NCBI GenBank assembly: GCA_021513695.1
Contig: CP084166.1
Location: forward strand, 32,001-96,000
Length of the DNA stretch: 64,000 bases
Reading direction: 5' to 3'
Source of the DNA: Candidatus Heimdallarchaeum aukensis
GTDB taxonomy: Archaea; Asgardarchaeota; Heimdallarchaeia; Heimdallarchaeales; Heimdallarchaeaceae
Part shown: one piece after another, positions 6,911 to 53,429 of the stretch
Layout of the letters: each line of letters starts with the position of its first letter
Position numbering within the stretch: the stretch's first letter is position 1
The notes under the pieces: generated by a model
Database searches by the model: none
Told to the model about the DNA's origin: nothing
What the model saw: only the letters and a program-made list of their open reading frames with translations
Position numbers and translations under genes: made by a program

Positions 6911-7594
6911 ATGATAAAAATGAATATTGAGGGAATTGATTTTCACTGGTTAGGACACGATAGTTTTCTTATCCAAGCCAAAGGTAAGAATATCTATATT
7001 GATCCTTATAAATTAACAAAAAAAGATCTTCCAGAAGCTGATATAATAATCACAACACATGATCATTTTGATCATTGTAATCCAGAAGCTATCGAACAGA
7101 TATGTGGTGAAAAAACTATTTTAGTTGGTCCTAAAGTAACAATAGATAAACTCAATGATATCTCCAAAAAGAAAAAGGTAATTGAACTTAATCCTTATGA
7201 TGAAAAGGAAATTGATGGAATAAAAATTAGTGCAATTCCTGCTTATAACACTCACCGTTTCCGTGATCCAGAAACAAAAACACCTTTTCATCCCAAGGAA
7301 TCAGGACATATAGGACCTATTATTGATGTTGATGGTGTAAAAATTTATCACGCTGGAGATACAGATAAAATACCAGAAATGGAGGACTTAAAGCCACATA
7401 TTGCATTAATTCCAGTTAGTGGTACATACGTAATGGATGTTCCAGAAGCAGTTGAAGCTGCAAAAGTAATTAGTGCTAAAATAACTATCCCAATGCATGT
7501 TGGAAGGGGAATTGGAGAATTATCTTATAGAGAAGAATTTAAAGAAAAACTTGAAAACATGGAAGTAATCCTCTTAGATTTAGAAGAAAGTTAG
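6911..7594 (+). CDS. Metallo-beta-lactamase-fold metal-dependent hydrolase
   Basis: 227-aa ORF with HxHxDH-type motif (TTHDHFDHCNP) and downstream His/Asp residues (HAGDTD, PMHVG) typical of the MBL superfamily. Confidence 0.7.
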   Translation: MIKMNIEGIDFHWLGHDSFLIQAKGKNIYIDPYKLTKKDLPEADIIITTHDHFDHCNPEAIEQICGEKTILVGPKVTIDKLNDISKKKKVIELNPYDEKEIDGIKISAIPAYNTHRFRDPETKTPFHPKESGHIGPIIDVDGVKIYHAGDTDKIPEMEDLKPHIALIPVSGTYVMDVPEAVEAAKVISAKITIPMHVGRGIGELSYREEFKEKLENMEVILLDLEES

Positions 7595-7680
7595 CTTCTT
7601 TTTGCTTTCTTTTTTTCTCATTTTTTTCGTTTCAAATAATTGTTTATAAATAAGCTATTTTTTTTTAATCTCGAAGTCTT

Positions 7681-9105
7681 ATGGATGATTATGTGACAGT
7701 AGTAGATAAAAATGTTGAACCTACTAAAATTGAGGCTAAAAGAACTCATTTCGGTAATGTTTTTCTATGGTCTTCCTATGATGCTGCTGATACTCTTTTT
7801 TCTCAAGGAATAATTAGTATTGTTTTTCAACCCTTTGTTTTATTATTAGCTTATGAACAAGGTATAACTAATTATTGGACTGCTTTTGCTTTAATGTCAG
7901 CATTTATGGCTTTTTCAAACTTACTTGTAGCTATTTTTGGTCCAATAATTGGATCTATTAGTGATACGATAGGAAAACGAAAATCTGCCGTTCTTATTTC
8001 AGCATCATTAATGGTTATTTCGACACTAGCTTTCCTCATTTGGAGGAACTTTTGGTGGCTTTCAATAATGTTCGTTTTTGCTAACTTTGGTTATCAAGCA
8101 GGACGAATGTTTTACGATTCAATGATACCTTTCATTTCAAAAACAGATCAAAGAGGAATAACATCTGGTATTTCTGGTTCTCTTAGTTTTATTGGGACTT
8201 TTGCTGCCATTGGATTGGCTCAAGTAGCTTATTCAATATGGGGTAAGTTCTCAGAACCTGGAAAGGTATTTGAAGAAGGTGCATCAATAAGTTATACAAG
8301 CTTAGAATGGTTGACTGTTATAGTTATAGCAGGAATATTAGTTTTTACGATACCCTTTCTATTTTCAAAAGAAAAAGAGAATCCAAATTCATTTTCCTTC
8401 AAACAGAACTTAAAACAAGCTAGACTTGAATTTAAAGACACTTTGAAAGAGATTTTCAAGTACAAGAACGCTTTATTGTTTATTTTGGGTTGGTTTTTTG
8501 TAACTGATGCAAGTAATACTACAATTTTATACATGCAACTTGTAATGATTGATGGTGTAGGAGCTGATCCTGGTCAAGCATTAATGATTATTGCAATGGG
8601 TGGACTTTTATCAATGATTGGAGCAATTATTGTAGGTGTGCTTTTAGATAAACTTGGACCAAAGAAAAATTTCATTATCAACATATTCGCTTGGTTTATT
8701 GCAGTAAGTATAGCTATTATTGCATGTATTGAGGTAGATGGAAAACACATCGTTCCTTGGCAAATAATGTTCTTAGTTGGATTCTTTATTGGAATAGGAT
8801 TCGGAGGAATATGGCTTATCGGAAGACAATTTGTTTTTGAAGTTGCTCCTCCGAAGAAAGTTACTCAATATCAAGGATTTAAACAAATTGCAGGAAGAGT
8901 AAGCGCCATTATAAGCCCAATTATGTTCTTGTTGATGCTTGGTTTAGGTGCTAAACTTGGTTTGAGTATTTCCAATCAATATGCAATTGCTCTTGCTCCT
9001 CTCTTAATATTCTTTACAATTGGACTAATAATTGTTCTAAAATATGTTGATGTTCATAAAGAATATCTAGCTGGAGAAAGAGCTCCATATAAGAAATTAC
9101 AATAA
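7681..9105 (+). CDS. MFS-type transporter (polytopic membrane protein)
   Basis: 474-aa ORF with about 12 hydrophobic segments in a 6+6 arrangement and a central hydrophilic loop (KEKENPNSFSFKQNLKQARLEFKDT). Followed by a T-rich terminator-like tract. Confidence 0.65.
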   Translation: MDDYVTVVDKNVEPTKIEAKRTHFGNVFLWSSYDAADTLFSQGIISIVFQPFVLLLAYEQGITNYWTAFALMSAFMAFSNLLVAIFGPIIGSISDTIGKRKSAVLISASLMVISTLAFLIWRNFWWLSIMFVFANFGYQAGRMFYDSMIPFISKTDQRGITSGISGSLSFIGTFAAIGLAQVAYSIWGKFSEPGKVFEEGASISYTSLEWLTVIVIAGILVFTIPFLFSKEKENPNSFSFKQNLKQARLEFKDTLKEIFKYKNALLFILGWFFVTDASNTTILYMQLVMIDGVGADPGQALMIIAMGGLLSMIGAIIVGVLLDKLGPKKNFIINIFAWFIAVSIAIIACIEVDGKHIVPWQIMFLVGFFIGIGFGGIWLIGRQFVFEVAPPKKVTQYQGFKQIAGRVSAIISPIMFLLMLGLGAKLGLSISNQYAIALAPLLIFFTIGLIIVLKYVDVHKEYLAGERAPYKKLQ

Positions 9106-13261: not shown

Positions 13262-14251
13262 TTAATGTTCAATAAATTCTTTCTCGCTTATAACTTTACA
13301 TGTTAATGTTTTAGCAGCAAAAGGTATGAAACTTTTTTCTAGCTCCTTTTTAACCTTTTCAAAAATCAAATAGCGATTTTCTTCACTTGTTAGATCCAAA
13401 GTAATGATTTCAGTTAAATTTTCTATTAATGTAAGCAAAGGACCTTTTTCTATTAGTACATACTCTGTTGTTACTAATAAAGCAATGTTATGATAACTAA
13501 TAAACAGTAGTTTATATTCCTCAAAGTTAATTTCTTCCATTGAACTAAGTTGTTTTTTGTTTGTTGAATTTAGCCACTTATTCTCATAAGCACTAATTAT
13601 GTTCTTAACTTTTTCTCTGGTTCTTGTATTATCGTGTATATGAAGATTAACTCCGTCTTTTTTAATGAAAATATCTACCGATAAAATGTTTGGCATTAAT
13701 CCTGTTTTTTTACTAACCAACTTGCTTATTAACCAATTCATCGCATCGCTTATGTATTCGCCTGTTTTGACTGAAATGAAAAAGAATCGAAAACTCATCT
13801 GACTTTCAATTGAAATTAATTTGTTAAGTTCAAATCCTTTAACAATTTCTTCAATAACTCTTTCTTTTTCTGTAATTAAGTCCATCTTATTACCTAGAAA
13901 AAGCACTGGTATATCTTTGTTTTTTATCCATTCTAAAATAGTATAGAACCATTCTTTACTTTCTGGTAAACTTTCTAAATTTGAAGCGTCAAAAATGAAA
14001 ATTAAAGCAGAGGAAAGATTAATGTAATTTTTCCAAATGTGCTTTCTGAATGCTTGGTGTCCCCCCATATCCCAAATTTGAAGGGGAAAACCTTGGTACT
14101 CGGTAAATTCTACATCAACACCTAAAGTCGGAGGAGAAGAAACAAAGGTTCCCGATAGTAACCTTTGGGTAAAGCTAGATTTTCCGGCTTGTGGAAGGCC
14201 AGTTATAGCAATAGAGAATCTTGTCATTTTTGAGTTCACTTCAATTAGCAC
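13262..14251 (-). CDS. Arf/Sar-family-like small GTPase with ~150-aa C-terminal extension of unknown function
   Basis: 329-aa ORF. P-loop GLPQAGKSS. PTLGVDVEFTEY resembles Arf PTIGFNVETVEY. Switch II WDMGGHQ (Arf WDVGGQ) followed by RKHIWKNY (Arf RPLWRHY). IFIFDASN (Arf IFVVDSND). NKMD (NKxD). C-terminal G5-like SVKTGEYISDAMNWLISKL (Arf ATSGDGLYEGLDWL). Confidence 0.8.
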   Translation of the reverse strand: MLIEVNSKMTRFSIAITGLPQAGKSSFTQRLLSGTFVSSPPTLGVDVEFTEYQGFPLQIWDMGGHQAFRKHIWKNYINLSSALIFIFDASNLESLPESKEWFYTILEWIKNKDIPVLFLGNKMDLITEKERVIEEIVKGFELNKLISIESQMSFRFFFISVKTGEYISDAMNWLISKLVSKKTGLMPNILSVDIFIKKDGVNLHIHDNTRTREKVKNIISAYENKWLNSTNKKQLSSMEEINFEEYKLLFISYHNIALLVTTEYVLIEKGPLLTLIENLTEIITLDLTSEENRYLIFEKVKKELEKSFIPFAAKTLTCKVISEKEFIEH

Positions 14252-31043: not shown

Positions 31044-31880
31044 TTATTCAATTAGCATTGAAAGATCAAAGTTTTTTACCGAATGAGTTAAGGAACCAGA
31101 AGAAATATGGTTAACATTCTCTAATTCAAAATCTTCAATGTTGTCAATTTTTATGTTACCACTTAATTCAATAAGTATATTTTGGTTTATTTCTCTAATC
31201 TTTTTAACAACATGTTTTGCTTGTATTGGTTTAAAGTTATCAAGCATAATTATATCTGCTCCAGCTTTTGCTGCTTCAATAGCTTCCTCTTCATTTTTTA
31301 CTTCTACTTCTATTTTTTTACTAAAACTTACAGTTTCTTTTGCTTTTGCTATAGCTTCTGTTATTGAACTAAAAAGAGATAAGTGATTCTCTTTTAACAA
31401 AACCATGTCAGAAAGATTAAATCGATGAGTATCTCCACCACCTATTGTAACAGCATATTTATCATATTTTGCTAAACCAGGAACAGTCTTTCTAGTGGCG
31501 CATATTTTAAGGTTTGGGTTAATTTTTCTCGTTTTTTCTATCATTTGAGCAGTAGTTGTTGCTATTCCAGACATTCTACCAAGTATATTCAAAGCGATTC
31601 TTTCTCCTTGAAGAAGACTCTTGATGTTACCTTTGATTTCTGCAATAACTTGTTTTTTACTAACTTTTTGCCCCTCTTGCACATTTGCGTTCCATTCTGC
31701 TCCAAGAAGAGTAAAGATTTTTTCTGCAACTGTTAAACCTGCAATAATACCTTCCTGTTTAGCGAAAATTTTTGCTTTTACTTTTTTATCTGGAAGAAGA
31801 TTAGTTGTAATATCCCAATAAGGGATATCCTCTTTTAACCATTCTTTGATATCTTCTTCAATAAGAATCTCTGGTATCAT
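31044..31880 (-). CDS. nadC: Nicotinate-nucleotide pyrophosphorylase (quinolinate phosphoribosyltransferase)
   Basis: 278-aa ORF. N-terminal EDIPYWDITT, type II PRTase core (TRKTVPGLAKYDKYAVTIGGGDTHRFNLSDMVLLKENH) and C-terminal IMLDNF...ELSGNI. Adjacent to nadA. Confidence 0.85.
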   Translation of the reverse strand: MIPEILIEEDIKEWLKEDIPYWDITTNLLPDKKVKAKIFAKQEGIIAGLTVAEKIFTLLGAEWNANVQEGQKVSKKQVIAEIKGNIKSLLQGERIALNILGRMSGIATTTAQMIEKTRKINPNLKICATRKTVPGLAKYDKYAVTIGGGDTHRFNLSDMVLLKENHLSLFSSITEAIAKAKETVSFSKKIEVEVKNEEEAIEAAKAGADIIMLDNFKPIQAKHVVKKIREINQNILIELSGNIKIDNIEDFELENVNHISSGSLTHSVKNFDLSMLIE

Positions 31881-31899: not shown

Positions 31900-32931
31900 C
31901 TAGTATTTTAGCATATTGTTTACTGCGTTGAAAGCTCGTTTTCTGATTCCTTCTTCAATTTCTATTATATTTTCTTCCTTTGGATTTTCTAAACACTCTA
32001 AAATATTAATAAGATTACTTTGTTTCATCATAGGGCAAATCATATTACTGTCTACAAACTTCAGATGGGGATATTCTACTTTCATTCGATCAATGAAACC
32101 TTGTTCAGTAACAAACAACACTTCTTTCGATGTCTTACTTGATTTAGAAAATCTGTGCATATCTCCTGTTCCCCCTACTAAATCAGAAATCTCAACAACT
32201 TCAGGTTTACACTCAAAATGAGAAAAAACTAAAGTGTCTTCATTTTTCTTTAGTTGCTCTAGTTTTTCTTTTGTAATTCTATCATGTGTTCTGCAATGTC
32301 CTCTGTAAGTGATAATCTTCTTTCCTGTAACTTTAGCTAAGTTTACTCCCATATTGTAATCAGGGACGAAAATAATTGTATCACTATCTAATTTCTCAAT
32401 AATTTTTCTTGCATTTGCAGAGGTACAACAGACATCAGCTTCAGCTTTTACATCAGCAGTTGTATTGACATAGCAAACAACAGGAGCTCCAGGATATTTC
32501 TTTTTTAATTTTCTAACATCCTCCCCAGTTATTGAATCTGCTAAAGTGCAACCTATTCCTCTTTTTGGAACTAAAACAGTTTTTTCAGGATTAAGAATTT
32601 TGGCTGTCTCAGCCATGAATTCTACACCACAAAAGAGAATAATGTCTTCTTTAACTTCAGTTGCTTTCTTGGATAATCCTAAACTATCTCCTACATTATC
32701 TGCAATACCAAAAATAATATCTGGAGTCTGGTAAGAATGAGCTAGAATATGTACTCCTTTTTTCTTCTTGAGTTTGTTAATTCTTAAAGTTAAAGGAGCG
32801 ATATCTAAACAGTCATTTAACGTCCATCCTAAATGACCTAGCTTTGAATATAGTCTCTGTACTTCATTTTCTATTTCATCTTGTGTAAAGCCAAATGTAA
32901 TCTGTTCAATCTGATTTTCAATAACTACCAT
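31900..32931 (-). CDS. nadA: Quinolinate synthase A
   Basis: 343-aa ORF with three-repeat NadA architecture and conserved Cys residues (e.g. GIGCTLAD, HCRTHD), ILAHSYQTPD and CYVNTTADVKAEADVCCTSANA. Confidence 0.8.
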   Translation of the reverse strand: MVVIENQIEQITFGFTQDEIENEVQRLYSKLGHLGWTLNDCLDIAPLTLRINKLKKKKGVHILAHSYQTPDIIFGIADNVGDSLGLSKKATEVKEDIILFCGVEFMAETAKILNPEKTVLVPKRGIGCTLADSITGEDVRKLKKKYPGAPVVCYVNTTADVKAEADVCCTSANARKIIEKLDSDTIIFVPDYNMGVNLAKVTGKKIITYRGHCRTHDRITKEKLEQLKKNEDTLVFSHFECKPEVVEISDLVGGTGDMHRFSKSSKTSKEVLFVTEQGFIDRMKVEYPHLKFVDSNMICPMMKQSNLINILECLENPKEENIIEIEEGIRKRAFNAVNNMLKY

Positions 32932-33345
32932 TTTTTAGACCAAGTAACGCTTCAATGAAGGTATATAAAGGAAATATGCTTTAGGAAAATATTACAAGAT
33001 TTTTTTGAAAAGAACTAATGTAACATAGAAAATAAATGCATTTTTAGAAAAATACAAGCAAAAATTGCCTAAATATAATAAAAAGGTGTTTTTTATTTTA
33101 AGGCATATCTAAAGAACTCTTGAGAATACTACTAATCGTTAAATTATTTAAAAATTATATACTCCCATTAGTATAAATTATAATCTTTTATTATAGGGTT
33201 ACAATTCTATAGATTTGAAGCATTGTTATTTTTTGTTATTTCTAGCTATCATTCTATTAATAATTAAACACAAGATAAATAAATAAAATTACAAACAATA
33301 AAATGATTAACTAACATAATTGTAAGTAGATTATTTGGTGTGAAA

Positions 33346-34392
33346 ATGAACATATTAATGGTTATAGCTGAAGAAGAAGTTTTTAGAAACTTTGCTGATA
33401 CAATTAAAGAACAATTAACAAGTAATTCAGATAATATCTCCTTTTCAGAAATTACAGAAAGTGAACTCGACACAACTCTACAAAACTCTACCTATACAAG
33501 AAATATTAAAACAACAGATCTTGTCATTTCTGTTGGAGATACAGGGACATTCTTAAAATCTATCTTTTTGTCAAATGGAGAAAAACCCGTTATTGCAGCT
33601 TCTTCAGAAAAGATTAGTTTCTTTACTGAAATGACACCCAACAATCTTGAGGAAGCTGTAGCTTCAATATTATCTAAAAGTTACACAATAGATGAATATA
33701 ATAGAGTAGTTCTACAAGATGCAGTGTCAAATGAATACTTGCCCGCATTAAACGAAATAGCTATTTTTCCAAATCGGTCAGCACAGCTAATGAGCTATAC
33801 ACTAACATTAGATAATAATTATATATATAGAGGAAGAGCTGATGGTATTATTGTTTCAACTCCCTTAGGTTCTACAGGCTATGCACTCTCTGCCAATGGT
33901 CCAATTGCTTATGGAAATCCAGACATTACTCTAATTGTACCTGTAAATCCTTTGAATAAAGATCACCATCCTGTTGTTGCCCCTGCGGAGTCTATCATAT
34001 CAATAACTAATTTAAAAGCGAAAACCCAAATAGAAGTTATAATAGATGGTCAAATTAGGAAGAAAATAGATGGACAAACAATTAAAATATTGAAAGCTAG
34101 AAAGAAAGCAAAAATAGTAAGAATTAGCAAAAATATAAATATTGTATCTAGATTAAGAAATAGGTTAGTAGAACTTGACCTACAATCATTAGAAGGTGTT
34201 CCTCCTTCAGCAAAATACATTTTTAAGTTACTACATACAGAGGGAGAAATGACACAAAGTGAAATAATACAAAGTACAGGTTTACCTTCAAGAACAGTTA
34301 GAAATGCACTCAAAATACTTAGTGAAAAAGGGTTAATTGGAAAAAGGAGATATCTACATGATGCAAGACAATCTATTTACTTTTTAATATGA
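33346..34392 (+). CDS. nadK: NAD kinase (NadK/PpnK-like) fused to a C-terminal winged-helix DNA-binding domain
   Basis: NadK signatures DLVISVGDTGTFL (GGDGT-like), DGIIVSTPLGSTGYALSANGPI (GSTAYS.SAGGP) and the beta-sandwich C-lobe. The extra ~70 aa (LLHTEGEMTQSEIIQSTGLPSRTVRNALKILSEKGLIGKRR) are MarR/TrmB-type wHTH-like. ATG 33346 is preceded by GGTG. Confidence 0.7.
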   Translation: MNILMVIAEEEVFRNFADTIKEQLTSNSDNISFSEITESELDTTLQNSTYTRNIKTTDLVISVGDTGTFLKSIFLSNGEKPVIAASSEKISFFTEMTPNNLEEAVASILSKSYTIDEYNRVVLQDAVSNEYLPALNEIAIFPNRSAQLMSYTLTLDNNYIYRGRADGIIVSTPLGSTGYALSANGPIAYGNPDITLIVPVNPLNKDHHPVVAPAESIISITNLKAKTQIEVIIDGQIRKKIDGQTIKILKARKKAKIVRISKNINIVSRLRNRLVELDLQSLEGVPPSAKYIFKLLHTEGEMTQSEIIQSTGLPSRTVRNALKILSEKGLIGKRRYLHDARQSIYFLI

Positions 34393-34618: not shown

Positions 34619-34709
34619 TTATCGTATAGTACTCTTTAGAGTTCTGGGATTGGAATTGGGGCTATTATTTCCTGGAGTAAGTAATTGAAAATTGAAAAGA
34701 AGTGTAAAA

Positions 34710-37700
34710 ATGAAAAAAAGTAAAATTAAAGTTATTTCTATTATCGCTATTTTTCTTCTCATCTTGAACGTCTCGACGATATACGTTCAAGGTCAGATGG
34801 TAGGTAATGAAACTAAATTAATGATGACTGGAAATCCTACAGAAGTTTATGAAGATCAGATAGCGATTCTGTATGATCCATTTAATGATATGACAAGAGA
34901 ACTAGCAAATTCGATTTATGAGACTGTTCATATGTTTTATTCTAACGTGAAAATGGTCAAAGTTTTCAATTTAGATTCATTTAACAGAGCTTTTTATGAT
35001 GATGATTGGATTAAAATCTATGTTTTCGACTCTGACTTAAAAGGAATAAAATTTGCTGGTTGGACAATGTCATGGAGAAAACTAACTGGATACTACAATG
35101 TTTTCAAAGATACAAGGCACATTGGAGTTTATGGAAACTCATACAAGATGGGTCCATATCTTAAGACTGAAAACTGTTATATAGAAAATACAGAGATTCT
35201 AGATTATCGTATTGCTTACATTCATGTATTGTGGTCATTATATGATATTTTTACAGAAAAAGAAGATGAAATTCTTCAACAAATAGGAGAAAATTTCAAA
35301 TTAATAGCAATTAAATATTTTGGAGATTCATTTGAAGAAATAATGTCTGCCGAGTTTGATCCACAAGGATTAGGTGTTGTTGACCCAAAAAAGGCAGAAG
35401 AAAGATTACAAGATTCAATGGACCAATATCCAAAGAGATTAAATAAAGTTAATCCATATACGGGTGAGTTAGTTGATCCAACAGCAGAGATTGAAGGATT
35501 TAATCCTGTAATGGATATTAAACCCAAAGCAGCGATAGATGAAGATGACATTGTTTTAGGTGAGTTTCCGTTCTTATCTTCGATTCCTGGAGCTGCAGGT
35601 GACGTTATTAAAATAATTTTAGAGTTTATAGGTGTCGAGATACCAGAAGGTTTATTGACTGTAGGTAAAGAATATGGGGGGCAGATCGTCGCAATAATTA
35701 AAGAGATACCTAAAATTATTGGTTTCTTTAAGGATCCAAGTGCAAGTAGTGCTATTGAACTATTTTTTGATGTAGCAAAAGAAATGTTTCCCAGTATAGA
35801 AGAATATAAGCCCTACTTCGATATAGTAGTGAAAGCCCTATTTTCGATAAAAGATATTGCTTCAGGGGATCTTACTCCTTTAATTGATATATCAATGGAA
35901 CTTCTACGATTTATAATTCCTGATAGTGTAGGAGATTTTGTTGACGATGTTTTTGATGCTTTAAACATATCAAGTGCCCTTTCTGATATTATTAGTGGAG
36001 TTACTAATGTTGGTGATTATCTTAAGAGTTTTCTCAATAGGCAACTAATTACAAATTTAATGAAGAAATTTATTGAACAGACTTTAGATCTAGGGGGAGA
36101 ATCCCAAAAATGGATAGATACCATTTCAGAGATTATTATGATTGCTTATGAAATTGCCAGCACTCGAGATATGGATCACATAATAGCGGATGTCTTTCCA
36201 CGATTAGGAAAATTAGTTTACAAGAACATCTTAGATATGACCTATGATGAAAATGTAGAAAATACCTTCAAAGGAATTGCTGTTGCAATTAAGATGGGTT
36301 TTGGAGCTGCTGGAATCATTGATGTTAATCTTAAGGATTCATTTATGGATTTAATAGGCTTCTTCTTCCCTGACCTCGTTGAGACAGTTAATGATGTTAA
36401 ATTCTTTGTTTCAAGTATTAGGTCTCAAATTGATTCCTTTATGGATCTTGTTAAAGATGTTTCAGAAGGTAAAAATCTAGATGTAAACAACGTTCATGAC
36501 CAAATTATATCTTTAATTACTGAGCTTAGTTCATTATCAGGTCATTCTCTCGATGCAAATAAGATAAATGTACTCTCTCAAGCTGTTTTGATGGCTTTAG
36601 CTCTAATAAATGGTGATTTTGAAGCTTTAAGTGATACTAGCTGCCTAACAAGTCTAGTTGATGGATTTCTAGAACATTTTATTGGACTAGAAGAAGGTCC
36701 TAGAGAAATTGTACAAAAGGCAATAGAAGCTGGAGCAGCTATTTTACCTTTCATTACTGGGAAAAAGAGTTTGAAAAAATATATTATGGGAAGACTTGAA
36801 GATTTTGCTGACAAATTCAAGAATCCTGGAGAAATAATTGAAAAGGTTCTTTATTATTTCCTAAGCAAGTACAACGCAAGTACTCAACTTTACCAACTTA
36901 TTGGAAAAATTGTAGGAATAGTCATTGACATCTTTTCTGGAGGATTTGACTTTTCTGTTCAAAATGTTATTCAGACAATAATCTCAATGGCAGTTGTAGT
37001 TTTGAACATGTTAGATGTCAATATTCCGTTAGAAGCAATGTACAAGAGTTTTCAACTTCTATGGGAAGAGGGGCCAGAATTTTCCAATGTTGTAAAAGTA
37101 GTTCAAGATATTATGGGATTACTTGGAGGAAGCATTGACCCAACAATTAAAACTACTGTAGAAACAGTTCTTACTTTTCTAGGAGGAGCAAAGAATATCT
37201 TCAAAGATGGAATAAAATGGATAATGAACCAACTTGTAGGTTGGGCAGCAGGGCAGATTGCTAATTTATTAAATATGCTTACTGATAAATTAAATGAACT
37301 GTTCCAATCTCTTGGTGATTTGGTAAGTTATGATTCTGAATTCCCAATTGGTTTCGGAAGTTTTACTGCCTTCCAGATGCGAGTATTCTTCTCTTTAAGT
37401 CCTGGATTCGAAATTAACCCTGAACCAATTCAAGAGCTCATTATGAGTATGATTTTTGATGGGTCAAAGGTTTTTGATCTCGATAATATCGGAGAATTGT
37501 TTAAGCTTATCTTAAAATCAATTTCAATTATTCCTATTTTCAAAGCTGGACTTGAAATCAAAGCAGGAACGTCTGGAAAGAACGACTTAATGAAGATGCT
37601 CCTTGATTCTCTTGGTCTGGAACTTTCATTCTCTGGCTCTGCAGGACTAACACTGCAATTAATGAAGATTTCTAATGGTAAAATAAGTACTAGTGATTTC

Positions 37701-40700
37701 TTCAAAGTAATAGAATTCTTCTTTAAATTCCAGATATCAATAGCTAAAACATTCCCATTAGCAGAATTTCTAGGTCCAGGAGGAGCAGTTTTAGCTAAAG
37801 TTGCAGAATTCTTAGGTTTAGGTGGAATTTACCTAAAGATAGAGTTCTTTATAGCAATAGAAATTGTTAAACGATGTGAGACACCTACTCAGAAGGCTGC
37901 AGATATTTTAACAATTGTAATAGGAATAGGTGTTTCTGTAATTATTGATATCGACTTGGTAATTGTTGGAATAAAAATAACTATAGGTTTTGTAGTGACG
38001 CTGACGTTTATCCAGGACTTCTTGGCGGACGCACCGCTGCAAGTGATACTCGAGATAGAGTTCACTGTAGCGGTGAAACTGACGTTCTTGTTCGTCGACT
38101 GGACAGGAACAGCGTCATGGGGTCCAGATCCAATTTATCTGGCAGGAGGACCGGATGATGAAAGCACAAAAGACGAAATGAGCGGCTTGGACGCAGATGG
38201 GGATGGGTTACCTGATTCATATGAGTTAGGAGTTCCAGGAATGAAAGTAGACAGCGATGACAGTGATGGAGACGGTTTATCAGACCAATTCGAAGTGAAA
38301 ACGAGTAAAACAGACCCTATCACTGCAGATTCTGACGATGATGGTCTAGATGATTACATGGAATATGAAGTCTTAAAGACCAATCCTCTACAAGTAGATA
38401 GTGACTATGATGGTTTAACTGACTATGAAGAAGTTGTTATCTATGGAACTGATCCTAATGCACAAGATACAGATGGTGATCAATTAGATGACTATTACGA
38501 AGTAAATACTGCATGGAATATCACTGGAATAACTCCAAGTGTAAGATTTGTTACAATTGGGGGAGTAGAGTATAAAGATCATACTGATCCTCTTAATCCT
38601 GATACTGATGGTGATGGACTTCTAGATGGACAAGAAGGAGAATTTGGGGCTTATTATGGACCAGAATTGTATAACACTTCAGACCCAAGTTGGGATCCCT
38701 ATCCAATATTCTACAATCAAGGATATACTCATCCATTAGATAATGATACCGATGATGATTCTTATAAACAATTAGCAAATGGAACTATAGCTCCAGATCG
38801 TCAGTTCTTAATCTATATGTCTGATAAGGTAGAAATAGATGGACAATGGGTTATTTTCATTGAAGATGATGAATTAATGGGTAGAGTAGTTAGAACTAAC
38901 CCAATTAACCCTGATACTGATGGTGATTCAGCAGTAATGGATAAATCTTGGAGAGGTGATGGGGCTCCTCTTGACTTTTTCCTGAAGTCTGATGGTTACG
39001 AACTCTGGTTAGATCCGCCGACAGACCCGAATGACGCGGATATGGACGATGATGGATTAATTGACGGTTTAGAGGGTTGGGGTAATAAGATCAGTAATCA
39101 TACTGATCCTCGTAATCCTGATACTGATGGTGATGGACTTGGAGACCTGCAAGATATTCTACTCGGTTCGGATCCTTTGAACCCTGATAGTGATATGGAT
39201 GGAATTCTAGATGGTGAGGAGTTCTTCAAGTATGGAACTAACCCCGCTTATGAAGATACAGATCATGATGGGCTTTTGGATGGTGAGGAAGTTTATCTAT
39301 TCCACACAAACCCTCTGGCGGTAGATAGCGATGGAGATGGGATAGATGATGGAATGGAGGTATTAGTTTATGGTTCAGACCCGATGGATGAAGATATGGA
39401 TAACGACGGTCTAACAGACTGGGAAGAGATTTTCTACTACTTTACCAATCCTAGAGATTACGACTCAGATGATGATGGTCTAAGTGATGCTATGGAGGTT
39501 TTAGATGAATATGCTATATACACTGACCCATTGAATTGGGACTCTGATAATGATTCAATCACATATCCTAATGAAAACGGAAATTATACTTTCCCACTTT
39601 CTGATGGAGATGAAGTACTAATTTACGGAACTGACCCATTGACAAGCGATACTGATGGAGATGGATTGCACGATTCGTTTGAACTATATCTTGGTTCAGG
39701 TTTAATTTACAACTTTACTCCTGTACCTTTGGATCCGTTATCTAACGATACTGATGGAGATGGAATATATGATGCAAATGAATACCACATTGCAAATGTC
39801 TCTAACATCATTTATCCTTATGTTAGTTTTATCATCACCCAACCTTACAATACTTCTCCAGTAGATCCAGACTCTGATGATGACGGGATTATCGATGGAG
39901 ACGAAGTCTATGTATATGGAACTATGCCAGATATGAAAGATACAGATGGAGATGGACTAGACGATTGGAGTGAACTTAATATTATGTATACTAACCCTCT
40001 GAGTTCGGATACGGACAATGACTATCTGACAGATTGGGAAGAATGGTATGCGGGTTTTGAACATCCAGGATATCTACTTGATCCTAACGACCCTGATTAT
40101 GATAATGATATGCTGCCAGATGGGCCAGAGTTACTACTTTACGGTTCTAATCCTAATAATGCCTATGAGATTGATCCAAGTTCAGGAAAAGTCGATGGTC
40201 TGTTGATGGATTGGGACCATGATGGTCTAGAAGATGGTTTAGAGTTCTTTGTATACAACACTAGTTATGTAGCAGGAGGAGGAGTCACCCAGCCAGATAG
40301 TGATAGAGATGGTTTGATGGATGGTGCAGAAGTATATGTTCATGGTACAGTCCCCACGAATTGGGATACTGACAATGATACATATAGTGATGGATTAGAA
40401 GTGATGTTAGGACTAGATCCTCTTACATATACAACAGAAGAGGAATTTATAGCAGCTCTATCTGCAAATCAAGATATGCTAGAAGCAGGAGTACTAGTTA
40501 TCTCACCAATAGAAGGTGGAATTTACTCTCCTTCTAACTATACTTTCATCCTCTATAACGTGACAGAACTACTGGGCGTACAATATCAAATGAAGAAGAA
40601 CAAACAAGATTTCGGAGACAACATGAGTATGTACTATGATGATGTTTCAAGGACGTGGATAACTCAAGGAGATTATATTGGACCTGGAGATTATATCGTC

Positions 40701-49113: not shown

Positions 49114-49791
49114 ATGTTGATGGTACCTACTCAGATGAAAAAAATAACCATACTAGGGACAACTGGTAGTGGAAAGACCACCTTTTTAGAAGCTTTATTT
49201 GGTGATTTTGAAAAAAATGATGTTAAAAGAGATTTGAGTAAAGAAAAAAGTTCAAATTGTGATTTTATTCCTTTGAAAAATAATACATTCAAAGAAAGTA
49301 CAACAACAATAAGTTTGAATGTCATTAATTCATTGCTTTATTTGACTACATTTAATCGATTAGGTTTAGAAAAGTTCGAAAATAGAGACAATATTGACTT
49401 TGAAAATGTTGAAGAGATTTATCAAATAGTTTTCAATGATCCTGCAGGACAAGAAAGATTTGATTTCATGCAAGAGATAGCAGTAAGAGGAGCAAACCTA
49501 GTAATTATAATGGCTGATGGCACAAATATCTCGAGTTTAGAAAAAGTAGTTCATTATATTTCGTTGGTAAAAATTGAAGAAAATCTATCTAAAAAGAAAA
49601 TACCGACTATTATTTTCATCAACAAATCTGATTTAAAGGAAAAGGGTGTTTATTTAGGAAAAAATGTAGCTGAGCAGATTATTTATTCAAGCATTCTTGA
49701 TGAGAAATTACTTATTTATGAAACTTCTAACCTTAAGAGAGAAACATATGATGAACCTTTGAGGATTATTTTTAACTATCTTTCATACTAA
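49114..49791 (+). CDS. Ras-superfamily (Rab/Ras-like) small GTPase
   Basis: 225-aa ORF. P-loop GTTGSGKTT. Switch II DPAGQERF (Rab/Ras DTAGQE). NKSD (NKxD). About 70-aa insertion between G1 and G3. Real start may be the internal Met (MKKITILG) at 49135. Confidence 0.75.
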   Translation: MLMVPTQMKKITILGTTGSGKTTFLEALFGDFEKNDVKRDLSKEKSSNCDFIPLKNNTFKESTTTISLNVINSLLYLTTFNRLGLEKFENRDNIDFENVEEIYQIVFNDPAGQERFDFMQEIAVRGANLVIIMADGTNISSLEKVVHYISLVKIEENLSKKKIPTIIFINKSDLKEKGVYLGKNVAEQIIYSSILDEKLLIYETSNLKRETYDEPLRIIFNYLSY

Positions 49792-49843
49792 ATATTTTTT
49801 GTTGATGAAAAAACCTTTTATTTTATAAATCTATTTCTAAGTT

Positions 49844-50818
49844 ATGAGCGTAAAAATAACCTCAGAATATATAGAGCTGCTGAATAAAGCAGTTGCAAGA
49901 GAATTACAAGTTTCTGTTCAATATTTTCTACAACACGCTAAAATTGAAAAAATAATGAGAAAAGTTAAAGCTGAAAATATTTTACTTGATTCCACAACTT
50001 ACGACCAGATAGGTCAGATTTTAAAGAAACTAGCAATAGAAGAAATGAAACATGCAGGATCAATCGTTGAGAGAATTTATTATTTGGGAGGCAAGGCAAC
50101 AACTAAAGCTTTTAAACCTAAAATAGGAGAAAATATGCAAGAATTTATGAAATATGGCTTTGAAGCTGAAGAAGAAGCTTTAGAATTATATCGTGAAATA
50201 ATCCGCGAGGCAGGTAAATTAGGAGATTATGATACTAAAGAACTCTTTAGGAAAATCTATAGAGAGGAAGAAGAACATCTTTATACGTTTCAAGAATATT
50301 TAACAATTAATATTAGTGAACCTGGAGAGACAGCACCAAAGTCCGAATGGAGAAAAGTTTTTGACGACGAATACTTTGCTCTATTAAACAAAGCCTTAGC
50401 TTCAGAACTGTCTGCTATTATTCAGTACATAACCCAACATGAAAAAGCGAGTGCAATCAATCTTAGGAAAAAAGAAACGCCTTTAGAAGTAATTACCAAT
50501 ACAAACAAAGCGCAAGTTATTAGTAACATGTTAAAGAAAATCTTTATGCAAGAAATGGAACATTACGAAAAGATTTCTGAAAGAATATACATGTTGGATG
50601 GAGAATGTACATTGGATCCTGATCCTTTGCCAAAAGTTGGTGAGAGCGTAGAAGATTTCTTGAAACTGGGTCATCAAGCTGAAGATGAAGCTATTGTTCT
50701 TTATCGTAAAATCATAGAAGAAGCTACTAAGAAGGGAGATATAACTACTAAGAAGATGTTTGAAGAAATATTGATGGAAGAAGAAGAACATTACTGGATG
50801 TTTGATGACTACTTGTAA
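49844..50818 (+). CDS. Tandem-duplicated ferritin-like (bacterioferritin/rubrerythrin-fold) diiron protein
   Basis: 324-aa ORF with two ~150-aa halves. Each carries ferroxidase-type E...QY/E..H ligand motifs (ELQVSVQYFLQH + EEMKHAGSIVERIYYLGG; ELSAIIQYITQH + QEMEHYEKISERIYMLDG) and the conserved E-x-x-H second pair (EEEHLYTFQEYL; EEEHYWMFDDYL). Confidence 0.7.
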   Translation: MSVKITSEYIELLNKAVARELQVSVQYFLQHAKIEKIMRKVKAENILLDSTTYDQIGQILKKLAIEEMKHAGSIVERIYYLGGKATTKAFKPKIGENMQEFMKYGFEAEEEALELYREIIREAGKLGDYDTKELFRKIYREEEEHLYTFQEYLTINISEPGETAPKSEWRKVFDDEYFALLNKALASELSAIIQYITQHEKASAINLRKKETPLEVITNTNKAQVISNMLKKIFMQEMEHYEKISERIYMLDGECTLDPDPLPKVGESVEDFLKLGHQAEDEAIVLYRKIIEEATKKGDITTKKMFEEILMEEEEHYWMFDDYL

Positions 50819-50888: not shown

Positions 50889-51254
50889 ATGAGTAATATA
50901 AAGAAACTCACTTTTTCTGTAAATCAAAGTAGAAGAGTGATTCGTGCAGCAGAAAACAAGAAAATTGAACCTAAAGAATTGCTTAAAGGTTATGAGCTTA
51001 TGGTAAATACCCTCTTTAAGCATTGGAAAGAAGAATATGCTGAAACTATGGAAATTGACTTTCAAACATTTTTTTATGAAATAATGAAATATGCTGAAGT
51101 TAAATATAGATTAGAAAAGACCAAGTCTGATCTAAAAAAAATAAAAGAAATGTCAGAGTTGTTAAACGAAGCCATTGAAGAATATAAAGAAGATTATACA
51201 ATTTTGAAGGCTATAGAAGATAGTTTGAGAAATATGGGTGTTGAGTGGGTTTAA
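50889..51254 (+). CDS. Hypothetical protein
   Basis: 121-aa K/E-rich ORF with no recognisable domain. Directly abuts the next ORF (stop/start TAAATG). Confidence 0.4.
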   Translation: MSNIKKLTFSVNQSRRVIRAAENKKIEPKELLKGYELMVNTLFKHWKEEYAETMEIDFQTFFYEIMKYAEVKYRLEKTKSDLKKIKEMSELLNEAIEEYKEDYTILKAIEDSLRNMGVEWV

Positions 51255-51704
51255 ATGAAATTGAATATTACCCAATTTAAGATTAAATTCAAGGATAAAA
51301 TAGAAATTGAAAATGAAGAGAAATTTGCAGATAATATAATCTATTATTATCCGTTTTTTCAATCTTTAGATAAAAATGAGTTAGAGAAGTCTCTTCAATC
51401 AATAAGAGAAGAAAAAAAAGTCTTGGAGAAAAAATTCAAAAAAATAAAAGAAGAGTTCTCAGATATACTGGGAGAGATAGCAAAAATACGTTTCACAGCT
51501 AATGAATTATATAATCAAAATAGGGTTATAGCTCTGACTACAGGGTTATTAAGACATAAGCTGATAGATTTACATAATAATAATGTTGAACTTCCTTTTG
51601 ATTATGAGGAAACACTTAAGTTTGTAGAACATTTTATTTATAGATATTTAACTAAAAAAGAAGATAAAAGACTTGTTGCCCAGCTACCTTTTAAAGAGAT
51701 TTGA
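51255..51704 (+). CDS. Hypothetical protein
   Basis: 149-aa ORF with no recognisable domain. Upstream of the serine recombinase gene. Confidence 0.4.
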   Translation: MKLNITQFKIKFKDKIEIENEEKFADNIIYYYPFFQSLDKNELEKSLQSIREEKKVLEKKFKKIKEEFSDILGEIAKIRFTANELYNQNRVIALTTGLLRHKLIDLHNNNVELPFDYEETLKFVEHFIYRYLTKKEDKRLVAQLPFKEI

Positions 51705-51783
51705 GAAAATTCACACTTTTTCTATTTGGAATAGTAATACTAAGTTTTATATTAAAAATAGAGAACCTTATTGCAAGGTCAAA

Positions 51784-52506
51784 ATGATTCGTTGTGTTAT
51801 TTATGCTCGTACATCTACAGCTGATCAAACTAGTGGGTTAGAAACACAGATTGAAGATGTAACGGCTAAGATATATCAAGCTGGAGATAGAGCAATAGTA
51901 AGAATAATTAAAGATCAAGATATTGCAGGCGATAGTGACCCTGAATATAGACCCGGATTTAAAGAAATCCTAGAAATGGCAAAGAATAATCAATTTGATG
52001 AGTTATGGTCTCAATCAAGAGACAGATTGTCAAGAGACGTTGATATTTTGGGTTATATTCGCATTCTTCTAAAAAAGAATAATGTTTCTATAGTTTGTTT
52101 AGATGATGAAGAAAACAAGGTTATTTCTAGAGTTAAAGACCTATTTGGTGAAATGGAACTTCAAAAATATAGAGAAAAAAGATACAAAGGAATGATGAGA
52201 AGACTAAAGGAACAAAAAGTAATGTCAAGACCTCCTTTTGGTTATAAAGTGAATGAGGAAGGAAAATTAGTTGTAGATGAGGAAAAAGCAGCAATAATTA
52301 GAAGGCTCTTTTCTGAATTTGACAACCCTTTGGCTTCTTTGAAAAGTTTAAGTTTGAAATATAATTTATCTGTCTCTACACTGCGAAATATTCGTTCAAA
52401 CCCAATTTATCGAACTGGTGAAGTACGTTGGGCAGGAAAAATTGCTTATTATGTTGATCCTATTGTCCCTGAAAATAAAGATCAAAAACTTAAGTTAGAC
52501 GACTAA
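51784..52506 (+). CDS. Serine recombinase (resolvase catalytic domain + partial 'recombinase' domain; truncated large-serine-recombinase-like)
   Basis: ATG 51784 (MIRCVIYARTSTADQ = Y.R.ST..Q catalytic-serine motif). RDRLSRD (SRLSR-like). Downstream recombinase-domain pattern RPPFGYKVNEEGKLVVDEEKAAIIRRLF ... STLRNIRSNPIYRTGEV. The protein ends about 60 aa later, with no zinc-ribbon or coiled-coil region. TATA-like TTTTATATTA about 35 nt upstream. Confidence 0.7.
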   Translation: MIRCVIYARTSTADQTSGLETQIEDVTAKIYQAGDRAIVRIIKDQDIAGDSDPEYRPGFKEILEMAKNNQFDELWSQSRDRLSRDVDILGYIRILLKKNNVSIVCLDDEENKVISRVKDLFGEMELQKYREKRYKGMMRRLKEQKVMSRPPFGYKVNEEGKLVVDEEKAAIIRRLFSEFDNPLASLKSLSLKYNLSVSTLRNIRSNPIYRTGEVRWAGKIAYYVDPIVPENKDQKLKLDD

Positions 52507-52520
52507 TTTTAGTATTTAGA

Positions 52521-53429
52521 TTAACTATACACCTTTTTTATGATATTTTCAGAAAGAGTATACTTTTCTCCTATAGGTTTTTTGTTAAGTCCTTTCTCAC
52601 TTATGTATCCACTTATTAGCTCTCGAGGGATTTTCTCAAAATGAACATCAACTACTTCCAAATTGGGATCATACTCTGTATTCCACAAATCAGTGCTTTC
52701 TGAAGGCATTATTTTGCCTATTACATCTATTTCTTTGAGCATAACCTTTTTCGCTGTTGCACCCACAATGAAAGGAATACTGTATTCTTCAGCTAACTTT
52801 GCCAAAATGTAACTCCCCGCCTTGTTAACTACTTCTCCTTGAGGAAAGATACTGTCTGCTCCAATAATTGCTAAAGTAGGTTTATATTTGTCAAACATAA
52901 CCTTCATTGCTGCATCAAAACTATAACGAACTTTATGTCCTATTTTCAGTAGTTCCTCTGCTAATGTTTTGCCTTCTTTCTTTGGACTAGATTCAAATAT
53001 AATAACTTCTAGTGGCTGTTTATAGAGTTCTTTTCCTACTCTTAACGATTCAAGTACAGTGCTTGCTCTGGAAAAAGTAATTATTGTCTTCTCTTCGAAG
53101 ATATGTTTAGAAATGTTTTGAGCGAGTATTTTCTTACTATTGTTTAATTTTTCAAGTTGTATAGACGGTATTTTCTCTAATTCTACTCCATTTTCCAGAA
53201 GTGACAAAAATTCTAGAACCAAATTTCGGAGGATAATCATATTTTTATTAATGTTAATGATCGGTAATAACTGATCAATTTTCTCATTTGTTGAATAATT
53301 ATCCCAAAGAGTAAAGTTTTTTTCAATTTCTTCTTTTAATATGAGTAAAACTTTTTCTGTTATTTCCATTGCTCCACTTGTTTTATCATCTCTTAAACTT
53401 TCAATCTCTTTGAAAAAGAATCCACTCAT
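52521..53429 (-). CDS. eIF-2B alpha/beta/delta-like family protein (ribose-1,5-bisphosphate isomerase / MtnA-like isomerase)
   Basis: 302-aa ORF with C-terminal family signature IIGADSIFPQGEVVNKAGSYILAKLAEEYSIPFIVGA (IF-2B fold: GAD.I..NG.V.NK.GT...A..A....IPF.V.A). Confidence 0.7.
   Translation of the reverse strand: MSGFFFKEIESLRDDKTSGAMEITEKVLLILKEEIEKNFTLWDNYSTNEKIDQLLPIININKNMIILRNLVLEFLSLLENGVELEKIPSIQLEKLNNSKKILAQNISKHIFEEKTIITFSRASTVLESLRVGKELYKQPLEVIIFESSPKKEGKTLAEELLKIGHKVRYSFDAAMKVMFDKYKPTLAIIGADSIFPQGEVVNKAGSYILAKLAEEYSIPFIVGATAKKVMLKEIDVIGKIMPSESTDLWNTEYDPNLEVVDVHFEKIPRELISGYISEKGLNKKPIGEKYTLSENIIKKVYS

Follow-up and report, generated by a model that had tools for sequence, protein, structure and literature searches.

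A Rup3-type small GTPase of Candidatus Heimdallarchaeum aukensis and its giant surface-gene neighbours

The stretch of DNA analysed here (64,000 nucleotides (nt) of Candidatus Heimdallarchaeum aukensis contig CP084166.1, hereafter 'the window') carries an open reading frame (ORF) for a small GTPase just downstream of two tandem genes for giant surface proteins. This ORF is a real, intact small GTPase gene. We consider it likely, with a probability of roughly 0.8, that its product is a cytosolic GTPase of the Rup3 group with a nucleotide-dependent surface, made from a monocistronic gene with its own promoter and having no functional tie to the giant genes. Evidence for this reading comes from the motifs and modelled fold of the protein, from the distribution of its homologues, and from gene order and upstream sequences in related genomes.

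An intact G domain with two expansions

The gene encodes 225 amino acids (aa) when read from its first ATG (Table 1; ORF list and translation), and its product is 100% identical to UJG40919.1, which is encoded on a 3.08-Mb contig of the same organism and is annotated by NCBI with 223 aa, starting at the second ATG, two codons later. An initial annotation of the DNA had recognized a small GTPase from the motifs GTTGSGKT, DPAGQERF and NKSD, and the ORF, the motifs and the matches to Pfam Ras (3.8e-11) and TIGR00231 'small_GTP' (1.2e-12, exceeding the curated cut-off) all agree with that identification. It had also pointed to Ras-superfamily GTPases as a signature of Asgard archaea, and this broad class is right for a gene in a Heimdallarchaeia genome. 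Further Pfam matches are to Roc (9.7e-9) and, over the C-terminal half only, to Arf (1.4e-6). Ras and Roc are likewise the top Pfam matches in all 29 family members compared, with weak Arf matches in 21 of them.

All five G motifs are present (Table 1). Among 173 homologues, D109, G112, Q113, R115, F116, F118 and M119 in and after G3, which reads DPAGQERF over aa 109-116, are each conserved in at least 97%. A family-invariant RFxFM stands directly after DPAGQE, and an invariant DGxN..S patch follows beta4. One of the threonines in the G2 motif STTT is presumed to be the Mg2+-coordinating switch I threonine, and the G5-like ETS aligns to the ETSAK region of Rab and Ras. No lipidation signal, hydrophobic segment or extra domain (KH, domain II) was found in the GTPase.

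In H-Ras, the G1 Lys, G2 Thr and G3 Asp are K16, T35 and D57. From G1 Lys to G3 Asp the window protein spans 88 aa and H-Ras 41, and therefore the net extra sequence amounts to ~47 aa rather than the single insertion of ~70 aa first reported; the extra sequence is real, but it is smaller and divided into two expansions. One lies between K21 and T64 (43 aa apart, with a range of 41-47 among the 29 members, versus 19 in H-Ras) and includes the invariant residues R39 and E44. The other lies between T64 and D109 (45 aa, and 44-51 in the 29 members, versus 22 in H-Ras), and is conserved in length and variable in sequence except for N81. Structure prediction, which the initial annotation had proposed for the insertion, treats the two differently. 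The interswitch hairpin is modelled confidently by AlphaFold2, with a predicted local distance difference test (pLDDT) score of 86-89 in both models and an added short strand (aa 83-87) and helix (aa 88-93), whereas the switch I expansion scores poorly (pLDDT ~46-63 in both models), and a deeper alignment of 101 sequences still yields only ~57-60.

The Rup3 group was defined by Vargova et al. as specific to Heimdallarchaeia and without eukaryotic relatives in the published phylogeny (bioRxiv 10.1101/2024.02.28.582541). We assign the window family to this group because it exhibits the defining properties: a Ras-superfamily G domain with G1-G5, both expansions (as defined in the Fig. S2 legend of that study), and occurrence across, and restriction to, Heimdallarchaeia (Heimdallarchaeaceae, Kariarchaeaceae, Hodarchaeales/Hodarchaeum and generic labels). 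The lack of a eukaryotic counterpart is also shared with the published group, a score gap described below favours a discrete cluster as in the published tree, and no difference was found. Judged by its sequence, the window GTPase is a member of an already described family, and there is no new family here. What is added to knowledge of Rup3 is a model of the expansions, a set of family-invariant residues, the lack of a conserved neighbour gene, and evidence that the gene has its own promoter.

A word-indexed search returned 136 homologues at E values up to 0.001. Among the best 120 of these, nearly all full-length proteins have 220-260 aa, and every named homologue is Asgard-labelled except one labelled Methanobacteriota/Euryarchaeota; identity to the window GTPase is 57-96% in Heimdallarchaeaceae and ~45% in Kariarchaeaceae, and the other labels are generic Heimdallarchaeota or Asgard plus one 'Odinarchaeota'. 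Hodarchaeales members, found by cluster look-up, comprise Ca. Hodarchaeum mangrovi WP_455142804.1 and one Hodarchaeota metagenome-assembled genome (MAG). When a single genome was scanned for each species, 51 full or near-full loci emerged, all Asgard-labelled or from an unlabelled 'uncultured archaeon', with only weak, partial matches in bacteria and Nitrososphaerota; two assemblies, JAOUKW01 and CAZYCQ01, each hold two copies of the gene. Named or titled records included no full-length member from bacteria or eukaryotes. In an exhaustive search with a profile, run against 1.84 billion cluster representatives listed without taxon names, 12 full-length representatives scored 195 bits or more, each matching in one stretch. 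Below these came fragments, eukaryote-like multi-domain tandem Rabs with summed scores, and ordinary Ras-like proteins at no more than 97 bits whose match is split into two stretches (G1, then G3-G5). This gap in score supports a discrete, separate cluster.

Several MAGs with Rup3 genes bear labels from other lineages, namely Odinarchaeota (L006, GCA_048885365.1), Hermodarchaeota (L059, DZ1M.253) and Methanobacteriota/Euryarchaeota (L007/L064, RMG28161.1). The 'Odin' protein is nearest to Kariarchaeaceae sequences (53%), and the 'Hermodarchaeota' locus has a YdjM neighbour of the Hodarchaeales type. The labels are probably coarse or wrong, since the nearest relatives or synteny are of the Kariarchaeaceae, Hodarchaeales or Heimdallarchaeia type, which suggests mislabelling.

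A candidate for an insertion-free sister of Rup3, P0136 (179 aa, 96.6 bits, 36% identity over the C-terminal half), was rejected as a chimera on a single 703-nt ENA contig. Its residues 1 to ~77 follow the Rab-like Asgard GTPase P0324 and its residues ~78 to 179 are nearly identical to the Hodarchaeales Rup3 protein P0291, with the junction near aa 77 in a conserved stretch past DxxGQ. It is probably an assembly artefact, and one able to mislead phylogenies. Separately, the distant GTPase P0148 (228 aa, on a 2.5-kb contig) matches the Rup3 profile at E 3e-15 and has a similarly long G1-G3 interval. Its TEVNR motif recalls the EVxR of Rup3, and its G3 is an MglA-like GTPGQ that lacks the Asp; it may be a more remote Rup3 relative or a case of convergent expansion.

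Comparison with other GTPase families

The initial annotation regarded the protein as Rab/Ras/Ran-type. This holds for the half from G3 to G5, which is most similar to Rab and Ran, but not for the protein as a whole, which matches Rup3 and is in all likelihood no orthologue of Rab, Ras or Ran. If it were a true archaeal orthologue of these proteins, and thus kin to the eukaryotic trafficking GTPases with an acquired insertion, one could point to its best sequence and structure matches (Rab11, Ypt7/Rab7, Rab8, Rab6 and Ran) and to the Rab-like D[TP]AGQERF of its G3 region. Rabs (Rab6 1D5C, Rab11 3BFK, Ypt7 1KY2) and the Asgard 'Thor-Rab' (7EZB) indeed give the best sequence-profile and fold matches, and they share with Rup3 a DTAGQERF-type G3 and switch II start, NKxD, an ETS(A) G5 region, and a core of six strands and five helices. 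Rup3 differs in the ~47 extra residues of its switch I and interswitch, in an identity of only 14-25%, and in lacking the RabF1, RabF2 (Trp) and RabF5 motifs and the C-terminal prenylation cysteines of Rab. The strings of RabF1 to RabF5 are IGVDF, KLQIWDTAGQE, RFRSIT, YYRGA and LVYDIT. The motifs themselves are named, without sequences, in PMC10933270. The Rup3 consensus reads STTT.S.N at the RabF1 position and ADGTN at the YDIT position, with no Trp before DxAGQ, and its RFxFMQ and (I/V)(K/R)GA resemble RabF3 and RabF4 in part. The window protein ends in ...NYLSY, and a Cys occurs within the last six residues in 4 of the 173 members. Judged by motif spacing, by the RabF strings and by its C-terminal end, the protein does not qualify as a Rab. 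In published trees Rup3 does not fall with Rab/RasL, and Vargova et al. report no Asgard sequences that are specifically sister to eukaryotic Rabs (bioRxiv 10.1101/2024.02.28.582541). Orthology to Rab, Ras or Ran is thus very unlikely. The opposite view, that the protein is a generic prokaryotic GTPase of the MglA, Era or translation-factor type whose Ras likeness is superficial, seems scarcely credible. MglA carries Thr for Asp in G3 (TxxGQ) and an intrinsic Arg beside the G2 Thr, and has a Roadblock/MglB partner (see also PMC10933270). Rup3, unlike this bacterial and Asgard polarity GTPase (5YMX), retains an invariant D109, shows no Arg immediately ahead of the G2 Thr (the residues preceding STTT are not Arg) and lacks an adjacent Roadblock/MglB partner, with no Robl_LC7 or Roadblock/MglB-type neighbour in any Pfam-annotated Rup3 locus. 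MglA ranks below Rabs in sequence and fold searches with Rup3, and the published tree keeps Rup3 apart from MglA1 and MglA2-5 (bioRxiv 10.1101/2024.02.28.582541). The uniform Ras and Roc matches of the 29 members, NCBIfam matches to Era and EF-G far under their cut-offs, and the lack of a KH domain or domain II speak against it as well. The placement with MglA or Era that the initial annotation had named as fatal to its own view was not found, by motifs, cut-offs or the published tree.

The window protein also differs from proteins of the Arf and G-alpha types. ArfR/Arf proteins (HodArfR1, 8OUL) resemble Rup3 in forming an Asgard small GTPase family, and the Arf mechanism is centred on the beta2-beta3 interswitch. 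Their hallmarks are an N-terminal amphipathic helix, often with Gly2, whose movement is coupled to an interswitch toggle, and a G3 of the DVGGQ type; the window protein has 7 residues before beta1 and a G3 of D[TP]AGQ, its match to Pfam Arf is weaker than that to Ras, and Gly2 occurs in 2 of the 173 members. Proteins of the G-alpha and EF-Tu type carry extra sequence at the topological site of the Rup3 switch I expansion, after alpha1 and before the G2 Thr. G-alpha draws a catalytic Arg in cis from this region, and Rup3 has the invariant Arg39 in the matching region. The Rup3 expansion differs in being only ~25 aa long and predicted to be mostly loop, with R39 lying 25 residues before the G2 Thr and not 3. 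No homology to the G-alpha or EF-Tu sequence is detectable, and the analogy serves as a lead only.

Gene order and upstream sequences

The two giant genes overlap by stop and start at position 40913 and encode proteins of 2073 aa with TSP3_bac repeats and 2669 aa with FG-GAP repeats. Both proteins have N-terminal signal-like segments and C-terminal transmembrane helices, leaving ~5 and ~25 cytoplasmic residues. Aloposons are tandem giant genes of 3,000-6,000 aa with tRNA integration downstream and four upstream genes, including one for a MinD/ParA-like ATPase (PMC8813620). The pair was tried as an aloposon and rejected with none of three criteria matched, given its protein sizes, no tRNA in the window, and NAD kinase upstream.

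The GTPase gene lies 191 nt past the end of the second giant ORF on the same strand, and runs of T7, T7 and T6 begin the spacer, as the initial annotation had described (~190 nt past a T-rich terminator). Archaeal RNA polymerase terminates at oligo-T runs. Judged from its sequence, the tract resembles an archaeal terminator that parts the giant operon from the GTPase gene. Downstream of it stand two exact copies of the 16-nt repeat ATTTTCTTCATTTTTG, 30 nt apart and the only two exact copies in the window, where 5 matches at up to 2 mismatches contrast with 0.71 expected. The repeat recurs in L010 (a relative with 96% GTPase identity) and is degenerate in L008; it is possibly a regulator binding site. 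A block comprising GATAGAAyTACCA...TCTTATAAA (TATA-like) then aligns in the window, L008, L010, L001, L002 and L003, and places a TATA-like box at 49047-49055, ~60 nt ahead of the GTPase ATG. The block is retained whether a giant gene or NAD kinase precedes the GTPase gene, and it appears to be the GTPase promoter. A GGGG element, which is likely to be ribosome-binding-site-like, is conserved in 5 of the 6 aligned loci.

At the 3' end, a T6 run that may act as a terminator is followed by a TATA-like sequence, TTTTATAAAT, that is a putative promoter of the ferritin-like gene, whose ATG is at 49844. An inverted match of 23 nt, 83% complementary and with a perfect 14-mer (TTTTCATCAACAAA / TTTGTTGATGAAAA), joins the coding sequence of FINKSDL (G4) with sequence just past the GTPase stop. 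It may reflect chance, a 3' structure or an insertion scar.

Neighbour genes of the window were compared by tblastn with all 71 Rup3 loci. The giant pair stands upstream of the GTPase gene in H. endolithica L014 (95% GTPase identity), L009/L010 (96%), L008 (72%), L033 (69%) and probably L034 (68%). This adjacency is confined to a close, Heimdallarchaeum-level clade (GTPase identity at least 68%), amounting to 3 of the 51 species-representative loci plus three metagenome contigs, and giant protein 2 is 45-47% identical in relatives whose GTPase identity is 69-72%. In 13 species-level Heimdallarchaeaceae loci (GTPase identity 61-66%), NAD kinase stands directly upstream without giant genes. Their gene order is QRPTase(-), NadA(-), NAD kinase(+), GTPase(+), p121(+), p149(+), a Resolvase-domain protein(+) and IF-2B(-), and the window has the same backbone (Table 1) with the tandem giant genes and a tandem-ferritin gene added. 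No neighbour in common with the window was found in three Heimdallarchaeaceae loci or in the ~30 loci at no more than 47% GTPase identity.

These data bear on the suggestion of the initial annotation that the GTPase links regulation or trafficking to the surface module, for which it had named conservation of the adjacency in relatives as a test. A Rab-like switch that regulates or traffics the adjacent TSP3/FG-GAP proteins would sit well with the shared strand, the short spacer and the retention of the pair down to ~68-72% GTPase identity. Because the window keeps the ancestral QRPTase-NadA-NAD kinase ... Rup3 ... p121-p149-resolvase-IF-2B order, however, the giant pair is best seen as an insertion. 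The limited adjacency, the conserved promoter block that is independent of the upstream gene, and the short cytoplasmic tails of otherwise extracellular proteins, together with the oligo-T tract after the giant gene, lead us to conclude that this is a lineage-specific insertion beside an independently transcribed gene. Giant genes and GTPase gene are neighbours through a recent accident of gene order in one lineage, and not through a conserved functional link; synteny largely refutes the proposed coupling, which we regard as highly improbable. A different partnership is suggested by the downstream side, where p121, p149 (abutting or overlapping p121) and the Resolvase-domain protein run after Rup3 in ~15 species-level loci at 61-100% GTPase identity. 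These genes could form a Heimdallarchaeaceae four-gene module in which the GTPase controls site-specific recombination or DNA handling, and the recombinase is unusually conserved (77-79% identical where the GTPase is 61-66% and IF-2B only 34-37%). The flanking housekeeping genes for NAD kinase and IF-2B are also syntenic, though, and therefore the run may be plain conserved gene order. Rup3 lacks it as a neighbour in Kariarchaeaceae, in Hodarchaeales and at three loci of Heimdallarchaeaceae; p121 has its own conserved upstream block, in the window located 3' of the inserted ferritin gene that parts it from Rup3; and neither inverted-repeat recombination sites nor PADLOC matches were found for the run. 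Such a module is distinctly unlikely; if true, it would be a case of small-GTPase-controlled DNA recombination or handling without known parallel.

The recombinase matches Pfam Resolvase (2.3e-20) and phrog_95 integrase (1e-34), is always preceded by the two Pfam-less small genes p121 and p149, and looks like a resident, strongly constrained gene rather than a recent mobile element. An invertible DNA switch worked by this serine recombinase was considered and rejected, as only AT-rich inverted repeats with 71-87% complementarity were seen in the 33-54 kb part of the window and none was convincing. A defence or phage origin of the cluster was likewise rejected, as PADLOC matched the GTPase only weakly, at P-loop level, and its neighbours not at all, and PHROGs matched the recombinase only. 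The ferritin insertion, a 324-aa protein with two Ferritin-like domains, occurs only at GTPase identities of at least 95% (the window, H. endolithica and L009/L010) and is absent in L008 and all others.

De novo clustering of neighbours in ~60 loci revealed no gene family that spans the subclades, and a conserved partner gene (GTPase-activating protein or exchange factor, Roadblock, longin, TPR) was rejected on this basis. In locus L005, a distant member, a 156-aa Pfam-less gene (7531-8001) ends exactly at the Rup3 gene start, an arrangement that hints at translational coupling. In the unrelated loci L005 (8700-9944, -) and L006 (8813-9602, -), the gene immediately 3' of Rup3 is a convergent one with TPR repeats. 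Neither pattern recurs in the same clustering. Elsewhere in the window, a second small GTPase of 329 aa matches Pfam Arf (2.7e-28 over aa 8-176) and has a ~150-aa C-terminal extension without a Pfam match; it probably belongs to the ArfR type of Asgard GTPase and carries an additional domain.

Table 1. Features in and around the GTPase gene (positions within the window)
Feature	Position	Strand	Remarks
Second small GTPase	13262-14251	-	
QRPTase	31044-31880	-	backbone gene
NadA	31900-32931	-	backbone gene
NAD kinase	33340-34392	+	backbone gene
Giant gene 1	34692-40913	+	
Giant gene 2	40913-48922	+	
Oligo-T tract (T7, T7, T6)	48926..48948	+	starts 4 nt past stop of 2669-aa giant gene
Direct repeat ATTTTCTTCATTTTTG	48980-48995, 49010-49025	+	two exact 16-nt copies upstream of GTPase promoter block
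Promoter-proximal block GATAGAATTACCA...TCTTATAAAAA	49028..49055	+	aligned across six loci
GGGGG	49102..49106	+	putative ribosome-binding site, 7 nt before ATG 49114
Rup3-type small GTPase gene	49114..49791	+	225 aa from first ATG; stop codon 49789-49791
G1 / P-loop GTTGSGKT, aa 15-22	49156..49179	+	G15, G18, G20, K21, T22 at least 97% conserved (173 homologues)
G1-G2 expansion, long switch I, aa 30-61	49201..49296	+	~24-25 aa over H-Ras; from spacing and conservation
G2 STTT, aa 62-65	49297..49308	+	S62, T63, T64, T65 at least 97% conserved (173 homologues)
G2-G3 expansion, aa 79-98	49348..49407	+	+22-23 aa; tip of elongated beta2-beta3 (interswitch) hairpin
G3 / switch II start DPAGQE, aa 109-114	49438..49455	+	includes catalytic-type Gln113
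G4 NKSD, aa 170-173	49621..49632	+	guanine-specificity motif; N170, K171, D173 at least 97% conserved (173 homologues)
G5-like ETS, aa 203-205	49720..49728	+	after beta6; E203, T204 at least 97% conserved (173 homologues)
Inverted match, 23 nt	49613-49635 / 49789-49811		
T6 run	49795..49800	+	4 nt past GTPase stop; putative terminator
Ferritin gene	49844-50818	+	between GTPase and p121
p121	50889-51254	+	backbone gene
p149	51255-51704	+	backbone gene
Recombinase	51673-52506	+	backbone gene
IF-2B	52521-53429	-	backbone gene

Proposed mechanism and significance

Throughout the family G1 to G5 are invariant, as are the catalytic-type Gln113 and NKxD, and both expansions are conserved in length. 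From its motifs, the protein would bind GTP or GDP with Mg2+ and cycle between two conformations as Ras-superfamily switches do. Both expansions would lie in nucleotide-sensitive parts of the fold: the switch I loop is ~25 aa longer than usual and bears the invariant Arg39 and Glu44, and the beta2-beta3 hairpin, ~23 aa longer than usual, would form a rigid protruding arm. Together with RFxFM of switch II and the DGxN..S patch, the expansions probably build a larger binding surface that is peculiar to Rup3, varies with nucleotide state and meets a partner or regulator. For aa 30-66, the low model confidence would suit a stretch that becomes ordered only once nucleotide or a partner is bound. 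Membrane or complex association, if any, would occur through a partner, since the GTPase has no lipidation signal or hydrophobic segment.

It is speculative, by analogy with G-alpha or MglA, that the invariant R39 is a catalytic or regulatory Arg acting in cis, and its position 25 residues ahead of the G2 Thr speaks against this. As a milder and likewise improbable alternative to the four-gene module, Arg39 and Glu44 could be a built-in catalytic or regulatory element, by which Rup3 might be self-timed like G-alpha.

Several points weigh against the view of the protein as a Rup3 switch with a nucleotide-dependent surface. The assignment follows from the defining features, and separateness from RasL/Rab, ArfR, ArfL, RagGtr and MglA depends on the score gap and the published tree. 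A few homologues are labelled Odinarchaeota, Hermodarchaeota or Methanobacteriota. GTP binding, hydrolysis and switching are deduced from motifs, the effector platform is a proposal, and the switch I model on which any role of R39 and E44 would have to be read keeps a low confidence even with 101 sequences.

A tempting but wrong lead, the coupling of the GTPase to giant surface proteins, is removed by these findings, and gene neighbourhood will not reveal the partner of Rup3. The residues singled out for experiments are instead R39, E44, STTT, Q113 and the DGxN patch, plus both expansions. Among known archaea, Heimdallarchaeia, and Hodarchaeales especially, are the nearest kin of eukaryotes, and work on their small GTPases treats these as forerunners of eukaryotic trafficking switches. 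Rup3 is a GTPase family of this class that combines class-wide conservation and strong selection with the lack of any eukaryotic descendant.
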